Shown here piece by piece: positions 37,909 to 45,678 of a DNA stretch of 64,000 nucleotides (positions within the stretch are counted from its first letter, which is position 1; each line of letters starts with the position of its first letter). The notes beneath the pieces were generated by a model. That model was not told the DNA's origin and made no database searches. It worked only from the letters and a program-made list of their open reading frames with translations. The position numbers were made by a program, and so were the translations under genes. The stretch is taken from positions 96,001 to 160,000 of the IMG/VR virus record IMGVR_UViG_3300029288_000077; one strand, given 5' to 3'. This DNA comes from a virus. Its lineage: Duplodnaviria; Caudoviricetes.

Positions 37909-40056
<2,148 letters not shown>

Positions 40057-41341: not shown

Positions 41342-41414
41342 TGGGACCGGTGGGATTCGGACCCACATTCCCTTGATTAAAAGTCAAGTGCGTTACCAAT
41401 TGCGCCACGGTCCC
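41342..41414 (-). tRNA. tRNA-Lys(UUU), CCA not encoded
   Basis: Acceptor GGGACCG/CGGTCCC-A, anticodon arm CTTGA-CTTTTAA-TCAAG, T arm GTGGG-TCCGAAT-CCCAC. Confidence 0.92.
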
Positions 41415-42812: not shown

Positions 42813-42841
42813 ATTGTACCACATCTATAATAACGAGTCAA
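42813..42841 (-). promoter_or_regulatory. Repeated sigma70 promoter, copy 3
   Basis: TTGACT-CGTTATTATAGATGTGG-TACAAT. Confidence 0.8.
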
Positions 42842-42862: not shown

Positions 42863-42901
42863 CGTCCCCAAGGGGATTCGAACCCCTGTACCAAGCTTGA
42901 A
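42863..42901 (-). tRNA. 3' half of tRNA-Glu(UUC), positions 34-73 only
   Basis: TTC-AA-GCTTG-GTAC-AGGGG-TTCGAAT-CCCCT-TGGGGAC-G. No matching 5' half found in the window. Confidence 0.8.
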
Positions 42902-42936
42902 GAGACAAACGCCATTTATGTTGAGAAAAATGATCA

Positions 42937-43506
42937 TTAAACGCACTTTTTGCCATTGCGGATGTGCTTCTTTACTGTTTGAAAACTTACACCAAACATT
43001 TTACTAACTCCTAAAATACTATTATCTTTTATTAATTTCATAAGTTCATTGTGAGTAGGCCAACACACCTTTTGATGGTCTAACTGGCAACATTTAATAG
43101 AACAATAACGGTGTCCGTTTCTTTTCACAGGAAAACTGCAACCACAGTGTTCACACACAGATGTTGTACCTCTCTTGGTGTTTTTCTTGCTGTTCTTTTT
43201 ATTTCTAATCCACTTTGAGTACTCATTTGATTTATCTGAATTAAAATGAATCTCAGAGTGACAATTTGCACACAGTAATTGGCATTTATCTAACTCTTCC
43301 TTCATTGTTTCTAGACTACGTTTTCTCATGTGATGCCAAGAAAATTTTTTATTTAATGGGTCTTTATGGTGAAACACAAGAGCACCTATACATTTATTGT
43401 ACCCACATATTTCGCATTTGCCTCCTTTATACTCTACAGCCATCTCCTTCAAATACACATATCTACGTTTTATGTATTCAGAATTATATTTTTGATCATC
43501 ATTCAT
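42937..43506 (-). CDS. HNH endonuclease with C-terminal Zn-finger and HTH
   Basis: YKGGKCEICGY, FHHKDP, LLCANCHSEIH, CEHC...YCSIKC. Confidence 0.9.
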   Translation of the reverse strand: MNDDQKYNSEYIKRRYVYLKEMAVEYKGGKCEICGYNKCIGALVFHHKDPLNKKFSWHHMRKRSLETMKEELDKCQLLCANCHSEIHFNSDKSNEYSKWIRNKKNSKKNTKRGTTSVCEHCGCSFPVKRNGHRYCSIKCCQLDHQKVCWPTHNELMKLIKDNSILGVSKMFGVSFQTVKKHIRNGKKCV

Positions 43507-43638
43507 GTTTGTTAGGTACCACTTTTCTCAGACAGGGCATCATCTCACTTTCCTACTTTCTTGGCGCGTCGCTTTCGGGCGCGCTTGATGGCCTGAATGA
43601 CTACGTTGATGATGCTCACCCCCATAAATCCACCTTCC

Positions 43639-44372: not shown

Positions 44373-44476
44373 GTGAACCTCCTAATTGAAAACTTGATCC
44401 TAAGACCATTATACCACAGCTATAATACTCTGTCAAGTATTTCGAACAAACGATGACGTATGGTCATATATGGTAA
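44312..44476. repeat. 165-bp direct repeat, copy B (contains promoter copy 4 at 44408-44436)
   Basis: Matches 39996-40160. Confidence 0.95.
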
Positions 44477-44538: not shown

Positions 44539-45678
44539 GTGCATAAGACTTTCAAATACCGTCTCTATCCAACACATGTGCAGGTCACTTTGCTAAATAC
44601 TACATTAGAAATCTGTCGTCAAGTCTATAATAAAACATTGGGTATGAGAAAATATACTTACGAGACTGAGAAAAAGTCTTTATCTTTGTACGATACTCAC
44701 AACCTATTAACTAAATGGAAAAAGGATAGTGTTCATTGGAACAGTGTTTATTCACAAGTACTAACTAATGTACAAGTCCGAGTCGATTTAGCCTATAAAG
44801 CTTTCTTTCGCAGAGTTAAAGCTAAGCAAACTCCTGGTTTTCCGCGTTTCAAGGGCAAGGGGCGTTATGATAGCTTTACTTTTCCTCAAGCTAGTAATCA
44901 AGGTGCTAAAATCGTTGGAGGTGGTCTTAGACTCAGCAAGATCGGTATTATATCTACAGTCTTTCATCGTCCAGTCCAAGGCAAAATCAAGACGATCACT
45001 ATACGCAAATCATCTACTAACAAGTGGTATGCCTATATCAATGTAGAAATAGATCCTGTACGTTTACCAGCAAATGACTTGGCAGTAGGTATAGATTTAG
45101 GTATAAAGACTTTTGCTGTCTTGTCCAATGGTGAGACTGTACCCAACCCAAGATTTTTCAAGAGATCAGAAAAGAAATTAGCTAAAGTACAACGCAAGTA
45201 TTCAAAGCTTGAAAAAGGATCAAGTAAGAGACGTGCGTATCGTAAAGTCGTAGCACGAGTCTATGAAAAGATTTCAAATCAACGCAAAGATTTTGCTCAT
45301 AAACTTAGCAGAAGTCTCGTTCATCAGTTTGGTACAGTGGTGTTCGAGGATCTCAACATACGAGGCATGATACAAGATGGTCACTTAGCAAAAAGTATCC
45401 ATGACGTAGCTTGGCATCAGCTAGTACAATACACTATCTACAAAGCGGAAGAGGCTGGTAGGAGTGTAATACTAGTAGATCCAAGAAACACGTCGAAAAA
45501 GTGCAGCAGATGTGGTAGCATAAAAGAGGATCTAACGCTTGATGACAGGACTTACATTTGTACGAGGTGTGGCTTGGTCTTAGATCGTGACTTCAACGCA
45601 TCCATAAATATCTTGGCGCTGGGGCTGCAGCGCCGGGGGCGCTGTGCCCCGCGTAGACGTGTAGACCTAAGCACGTAA
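44539..45678 (+). CDS. tnpB: RNA-guided endonuclease TnpB (IS200/IS605 family), no tnpA
   Basis: KYRLYPT, GFPRFK, RuvC GIDLG / FEDL / DRD.NA, Zn finger CSRC..CTRC. Confidence 0.95.
   Translation: MHKTFKYRLYPTHVQVTLLNTTLEICRQVYNKTLGMRKYTYETEKKSLSLYDTHNLLTKWKKDSVHWNSVYSQVLTNVQVRVDLAYKAFFRRVKAKQTPGFPRFKGKGRYDSFTFPQASNQGAKIVGGGLRLSKIGIISTVFHRPVQGKIKTITIRKSSTNKWYAYINVEIDPVRLPANDLAVGIDLGIKTFAVLSNGETVPNPRFFKRSEKKLAKVQRKYSKLEKGSSKRRAYRKVVARVYEKISNQRKDFAHKLSRSLVHQFGTVVFEDLNIRGMIQDGHLAKSIHDVAWHQLVQYTIYKAEEAGRSVILVDPRNTSKKCSRCGSIKEDLTLDDRTYICTRCGLVLDRDFNASINILALGLQRRGRCAPRRRVDLST

Follow-up and report, generated by a model that had tools for sequence, protein, structure and literature searches.

An HNH homing-endonuclease-type gene abutting an orphan 3′ half of a tRNA-Glu gene in a large phage genome

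How does a phage come to carry only the 3′ half of a tRNA-Glu gene, broken in the anticodon loop, with a gene for an HNH endonuclease on the other side of the break? The locus is in a 64,000-nucleotide stretch of viral DNA (the window), which is C2:96001-160000 of a 183,765-bp contig, C2; coordinates below are those of the window where no contig is named. A preliminary description had noticed complementary arms on the two sides of the HNH gene and a possible RNA stem running up to the anticodon, and had proposed a mobile tRNA insertion defined by that stem, with a 5′ exon that was lost or lies in trans, or else a repair donor for anticodon-cleaved tRNA-Glu or a phage attachment site. The best reading of the locus is now that a mobile nuclease gene has left an ordinary scar there; a new type of tRNA intron, a split tRNA and a repair donor are not supported.

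The phage and its early region

The first ~127 nt of C2 recur at the contig end, so it is circularly closed at ~183.6 kb, and we read it as a complete large phage genome. It has six intact tRNA genes, none with an encoded CCA, and its phage-type genes include those for a superinfection-exclusion GP17-like protein and a phage metallopeptidase, together with a DUF6744-MoxR-VWA set. No close relative of the phage was present in the databases searched, the nearest DUF6744 neighbor being 43% identical and the nearest HNH protein 44%. Megablast against phages gave no match, and DUF6744-MoxR-VWA relatives (~40% identical) have neither a tRNA nor an HNH gene upstream of the set and lack homologs of the small ORFs. 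C2 was binned with a 775-kb contig, C1, all of whose relatives are 0.5-1.2 Mb; binning is the sole basis on which C2 is assigned a host, and the locus is absent from 60 relatives of the co-binned genome.

A consensus sigma-70 promoter (TTGACA-17-TATAAT; 44408-44436, minus strand), recognized in an alignment of six promoter copies, heads a transcription unit whose last features are the HNH gene and the tRNA half. The end of that unit runs from a small ORF (ending at 43545) through a 40-nt leader, the HNH ORF and a 35-nt trailer into the tRNA half. Just 22 nt past the half is the start of the −35 hexamer of another sigma-70-type promoter (TTGACT-17-TACAAT; 42813-42841, minus strand), which heads the next early cassette, with the DUF6744 gene first. 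An intact tRNA-Lys(UUU) gene, found by both ARAGORN and Rfam (41342-41414, minus strand), is 1.45 kb downstream of the locus, and so tRNA genes are scattered among the early cassettes.

The HNH gene has other mobile elements for company. A TnpB gene (OrfB_IS605 plus Cas12f1-like TNB plus HTH; 44539-45678, plus strand) is ~1 kb upstream of it on the opposite strand, and a gene for a MoxR-type AAA ATPase (37909-40056, minus strand) has two bpMoxR/AAA_5 stretches separated by an insert that has a Hom_end match and is an intein; the MoxR relatives in L046, L048 and L050 are uninterrupted, with 372-375 aa. With a TnpB gene, an intein and HNH genes all present there, the early region is a hot spot of selfish elements.

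A free-standing HNH gene

The ORF that had been taken for an HNH gene is intact and encodes 189 aa (42937-43506, minus strand). Its product has matches to PHROG HNH families (E 3.8e-25 and 4.9e-23), and its translation contains the catalytic motif, CEIC...FHH...N...CANCH..EIH, with zinc-binding CxxC pairs. Behind an N-terminal HNH domain (beta-beta-alpha-Me) come a zinc ribbon rich in Cys and, at the C terminus, a helix-turn-helix. With this protein Pfam PF01844 fell short of E 0.01; it is recorded for several of the homologs, of which there are more than 1,465, with the 44% mentioned above as the highest identity.

Base composition sets the gene and its trailer apart. The ORF has 33% GC and the AT-rich 35-nt trailer (42902-42936, minus strand) 34%, compared with 56% for the tRNA half and 48-53% for the flanking genes, and the GC drop of the cassette ends at the break in the tRNA. 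The trailer is as long as a tRNA 5′ half, but neither ARAGORN nor Rfam finds a cloverleaf fold in it; when 33 nt of it were read as a degenerate 5′ half, there was weak acceptor pairing only, with the D-stem and the anticodon stem unpaired, and that candidate was rejected. Terminal inverted repeats of the kind that transposons have were also considered and rejected: there is only an 11-nt inverted repeat in the DNA, and inspection by eye revealed no direct repeat at the junctions.

The gene is free-standing in that no intron RNA matches at the locus and its homologs occur in differing phage contexts, always beside tRNA genes. The evidence supports a gene of the free-standing homing-endonuclease type that was inserted as a mobile element and is linked to a tRNA gene. 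The mobile HNH gene at a tRNA anticodon loop is thus the part of the original proposal that survives, and an intron defined at the RNA level by a stem is the part that does not.

Genomic context was taken for ten independent homologs, two of them on two contigs each, sampled mostly from large phages. At all ten loci there is a tRNA gene within 0-180 nt. The HNH ORF overlaps tRNA-Arg in L032 and tRNA-Asn in L062; it is between tRNA-Lys and tRNA-Gln with gaps of 1-2 nt (L033/L034), just downstream of tRNA-Glu(UUC) (L053), 1 nt after tRNA-Ile (L061), 57 nt after tRNA-Lys (both L054 and L063) and 39 nt from tRNA-Lys (L055/L056). In L051, which has the closest homolog, tRNA-Met is upstream and a tRNA-like gene without a D-arm overlaps the 3′ end of the HNH gene. 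An intact tRNA accompanies the HNH gene at many of these loci, but none does so at the locus in the window.

The phage itself has a paralog, outside the window, with 335 aa, two tandem HNH domains, a zinc ribbon and an HTH, whose gene starts 267 nt after tRNA-Ile(UAU). It is followed by an ORF of 277 aa for an HTH plus PD-(D/E)XK_5 endonuclease, the last 43 nt of which overlap tRNA-Leu(CAA), so that this pair of genes (C2:10814-12685; L057:1315-3186) is between tRNA-Ile and tRNA-Leu. As all ten loci and the paralog are near tRNA genes, the HNH clade is a resident of phage tRNA gene clusters.

Some further observations concern these arrays. L061 and L062 also have PDDEXK_5 genes within their arrays of tRNA genes. 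ARAGORN missed two tRNA-like genes in L051 (2830-2896 and 3532-3607, both minus strand): one, which overlaps the 3′ end of the HNH gene and scores 43 bits with Rfam, combines an anticodon arm of the tRNA-Arg(UCU) type with a long variable region and next to no D-arm; the other is a weak, shortened match of 21.5 bits. A 13-kb contig of the same bin, C8, has an RNA_ligase (PF09414) ORF of 449 aa (C8:4640-5510) ~120 nt from tRNA-Thr(UGU).

The orphan tRNA-Glu half

What abuts the trailer is a pseudogene fragment comprising positions 34-73 of tRNA-Glu(UUC), with no CCA (42863-42901, minus strand). Read from 42901 to 42863, it has the anticodon TTC, the 3′ strand of the anticodon stem, a 4-nt variable loop, a perfect T-arm (AGGGG/TTCGAAT/CCCCT), the acceptor strand TGGGGAC and the discriminator G. 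The clean 3′ half that had been reported is therefore there, and neither ARAGORN nor Rfam finds a full tRNA: 42863-42936 fails the full-tRNA test for a cloverleaf with both acceptor strands (ARAGORN, Rfam tRNA), and the half matches the tRNA-like clan only if it is read as 5′-truncated. The best matches among the 160 tRNAs compared are mostly tRNA-Glu genes. The preceding bases are T at position 32 and C, instead of U, at position 33. The break had been placed precisely between positions 33 and 34; its location in the anticodon loop stands, but the exact base does not, since the junction is placeable only within ~2 nt.

The half appears undecayed, as its last 30 nt are identical to natural sequence, that of tRNA-Glu(UUC) 3′ halves in five IMG/VR contigs. 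Such a pristine state would fit a recent event, and it would equally fit selection on the fragment. A search of 185,579 species genomes and of IMG/VR gave no exact match to its first 30 nt, from the anticodon to the T-arm, and the half has no match among the tRNA-Glu genes of the co-binned genome (C1). It is closer to tRNA-Glu of the proteobacterial type, by comparison with the E. coli sequence, than to that of the co-binned genome.

The lack of a 5′ half, first remarked for the window, extends to the whole assembly. A pattern search (exact or with one mismatch) and two structure-based scans found none in any of the ten contigs; all that came back was noise and intact tRNAs belonging to the co-binned genome, and none adjoins the 5′ arm. 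The suggestion of a 5′ exon acting in trans consequently has no support from either the closed phage genome or the co-binned genome.

How the locus may have arisen

Most probably, a cassette with the HNH homing-endonuclease gene entered a tRNA-Glu gene of the phage at the anticodon loop and left the 3′ part behind as a pseudogene. The order of events may be pictured as follows. Repair of a double-strand break or recombination event, within the tRNA gene or close to it, would have used a donor bearing the cassette. The AT-rich cassette, made up of leader, ORF and 35-nt trailer, would have replaced all of the sequence 5′ of the anticodon, since homology would have been on one side only, and positions 34-73 would have been left as a non-functional scar. 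With no intact replacement tRNA at the locus and a scar that is non-functional, the phage has therefore lost its tRNA-Glu. The half shares features with the tRNAs of the phage: it has no CCA, and it is among early cassettes that hold the intact tRNA-Lys. Counting against this account are the many homolog loci where the HNH gene has an intact tRNA beside it, and the distant DUF6744-MoxR-VWA loci, which have neither a tRNA nor an HNH gene in this place.

The chief competitor, an unlikely one, takes the tRNA half to be a passenger or debris of an array and not the scar of a resident gene. Either of two variants could apply, the small probability being for both jointly: the half may be flanking DNA co-converted from a donor phage along with the HNH cassette, or it may be left over from an unrelated rearrangement of a former tRNA cluster, the HNH gene being a mere neighbor. 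Homolog loci do hold orphan tRNA pieces and degenerate tRNA-like genes, among them the orphan T-arm at L053:2578 and a below-threshold tRNA match at L051:2830-2896. Homing moves flanking DNA with the nuclease gene (PMC2330249). Also, no relative has an intact tRNA-Glu at the site, the DUF6744 loci available for comparison being distant. Against these points, the low GC of the cassette stops precisely where the tRNA is broken, the half itself being at the GC level of the resident flank, and its lack of CCA is in the style of the phage's own tRNAs. A scar of the resident tRNA-Glu gene is preferred.

The flanking arms

Complementary arms are present where they had been described, at 43518-43546 and 42902-42934 on the minus strand, but the stem that they form exceeds chance only marginally. 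The 5′ arm is in the leader of the HNH gene, starting inside the stop codon of the small upstream ORF, and the 3′ arm is in the trailer; their pairing appears in both the MFE and the centroid fold of a 706-nt excerpt. With RNAduplex, the 60-nt flanks give −34.0 kcal/mol compared with −23.9 ± 4.0 for dinucleotide shuffles, 1.55% of which match that value, and 1.5% of 3,772 random pairs of windows 570 nt apart in the contig match it also. The flank complementarity ranks 4th among those of 209 phage ORFs, three being equal or stronger; the strongest in the phage is outside the window, at an ORF of 410 aa with no Pfam family (C2:84479-85711, minus strand; −43.1 kcal/mol). For both helices the probability of pairing, ~0.8 in the 706-nt excerpt, drops to 0.1 when the context is 900 nt and to 0.0 when the whole 1.6-kb transcript from promoter to promoter is folded. 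At the DNA level the arms amount to an 11-nt inverted repeat only, among longer chance-like ones.

The argument that had been offered for the arms being selected as RNA, that several imperfect positions are G-U pairs, carries little weight, since a helix found by allowing G-U on one strand contains such pairs by construction. Absence of the arms from homologous loci had been named as a finding that would refute the proposal. The arms do not recur there: at six homologous HNH loci the duplex energies of the flanks are −6 to −27 kcal/mol, with a mean equal to background, and no conserved leader or trailer was seen by eye among the HNH homologs. This is a weak test because the homologs are distant, at 44% identity or less. 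Most likely the complementarity between leader and trailer is fortuitous, or at most a minor local feature of the cassette mRNA.

Scar and stem need not exclude each other, and it is conceivable, if quite improbable, that the locus is a scar and the stem is real, either as a processing site of the RNase III type or as a structure that keeps translation of the nuclease low on early read-through transcripts. Local hairpins limit translation of some T4 homing-endonuclease genes. Here the HNH gene lacks a good Shine-Dalgarno sequence and its ATG comes 11 nt after the end of the 5′ arm; the stem is within the top 1.5-2% of controls and in both folds of the excerpt, and the flank duplex is stronger on the transcribed strand (−34.0 versus −20.5 kcal/mol for the other). 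These properties are countered by the fall in pair probability to 0.1 and then 0 as the transcripts become longer and more natural, by the three other phage ORFs that equal or surpass this one and by the background average of the six homolog loci. In addition, ribosomes would open a helix of 580-nt range around a translated ORF.

The pristine half and the helix would have more meaning still if they made up a working RNA unit, in which processing of the helix freed the 3′ half for use in trans, for example in joining to the 5′ half of a cleaved host tRNA-Glu or in drawing off, as a decoy, an anticodon nuclease of the host. A working half would be a counterpart, in a virus of bacteria, of split tRNAs; we give the idea very little credence.

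Attachment site, split tRNA and intron

An orphan tRNA fragment of this kind also calls to mind an attP core, whereby the phage would integrate into the anticodon loop of a host tRNA-Glu gene and its 3′ half would regenerate the gene. In the classic attP/tDNA arrangement, blocks of identity start in an anticodon loop and reach the 3′ end (PMC4383910). Furthermore, five related IMG/VR viral contigs (L035-L039), with no full tRNA, have an orphan tRNA-Glu(UUC) 3′ half extending from loop position 32 to CCA, a textbook attP/att-type fragment, and it is these halves that share the 30 identical nucleotides with the half in the window. For the phage itself such a role is highly improbable. The closed C2 has neither a tyrosine nor a serine recombinase (PF00589 and PF00239 match C1 only), the tRNA-Glu of C1 differs, and the 30-mer from anticodon to T-arm is the one that has no exact match in genomes or IMG/VR; the half has no CCA, and its neighbor is a gene for an HNH nuclease and not for an integrase. 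With neither a recombinase on the contig nor an exact host tRNA-Glu match, the attachment-site alternative of the preliminary description is largely refuted.

The reading that first drew attention to the locus is that of a tRNA intron defined by its stem, archaeal-like or new, or of a split tRNA: the arms would bring the exon ends together, the RNA bearing the HNH gene would be cut out and the 3′ half would be ligated to a 5′ half supplied in cis or in trans. Split tRNA-Glu genes with a complementary leader and trailer occur in Nanoarchaeota, the stem here abuts position 34 and the trailer is as long as a 5′ half. Nevertheless this reading is barely credible. A 5′ half was found neither by the 5′ arm nor elsewhere in the assembly when G-U pairs and one mismatch were tolerated; that assembly, 97.55% complete, has no match to the tRNA splicing endonuclease family (PF01974), with four archaeal controls positive; the stem is statistically marginal; and there is no group I, group II or other Rfam match. 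For a group I intron in the tRNA anticodon loop in particular, Intron_gpI was not found at the gathering threshold or at E<=5, and a 5′ exon is lacking; a group II intron or another known RNA family was rejected for want of an Rfam match at the locus. That there is no room for a group I core had been pointed out from the start and is borne out: the non-coding RNA is only ~40 + 35 nt, which leaves no space for a ribozyme core. As for a donor for the repair of anticodon-cleaved tRNA-Glu, the RNA ligase family PF09414 has no match on the phage contig (its match is on C8 only), and nothing else speaks for it.

Relation to known systems

Among known selfish genes, SegB of T4 offers a close parallel in setting. 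It is a free-standing homing endonuclease in a tRNA cluster, the site that it recognizes takes in the conserved T-psi-C stem-loop sequence, and it drives the inheritance of its tRNA region (PMC2330249); SegB-type genes are often associated with tRNAs and rearrange them (PMC13096335). Like the HNH gene in the window, SegB of T4/T6 is a selfish nuclease gene among phage tRNA genes, and its homing carries flanking DNA of the tRNA region and reshapes the cluster (PMC2330249; PMC13096335). SegB is, however, a GIY-YIG enzyme with demonstrated cleavage and homing, whereas the gene in the window would encode a homing endonuclease of HNH type, and, unlike the situation with SegB, the tRNA gene in the window has been left truncated, with no intact copy remaining.

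Many lytic phages have HNH homing endonucleases in their tRNA clusters, where these are likely agents of rearrangement (PMC10194208). Those of T5-like and other lytic phages are of HNH type, free-standing, between tRNAs and linked to insertions and deletions (PMC10194208), and the homologs of the gene in the window match that pattern at ten out of ten loci. The copy in the window differs in being in a scattered early-gene region, beside half a tRNA, in a ~184-kb phage of an uncultured host.

Two other comparisons are instructive for what is not shared. With attP/tDNA modules as defined for Islander (PMC4383910), the locus has in common an orphan 3′ tRNA fragment that starts in the anticodon loop, but not an integrase, a matching host tRNA or a CCA. 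With the HNH-encoding group I introns of bacterial tRNA anticodon loops it has in common an HNH ORF at such a loop, but a 5′ exon, room for a ribozyme core and an Rfam intron match are all missing.

As matters stand, the locus adds to the natural cases in which a homing-endonuclease gene has damaged a tRNA gene of a phage. Beyond the single case, the clade to which the nuclease belongs (HNH plus zinc ribbon plus HTH, ~190 aa) is a good candidate for an HNH analog of SegB, because it is adjacent to tRNA genes at all ten loci, and as such an analog it would recognize the DNA of tRNA genes.
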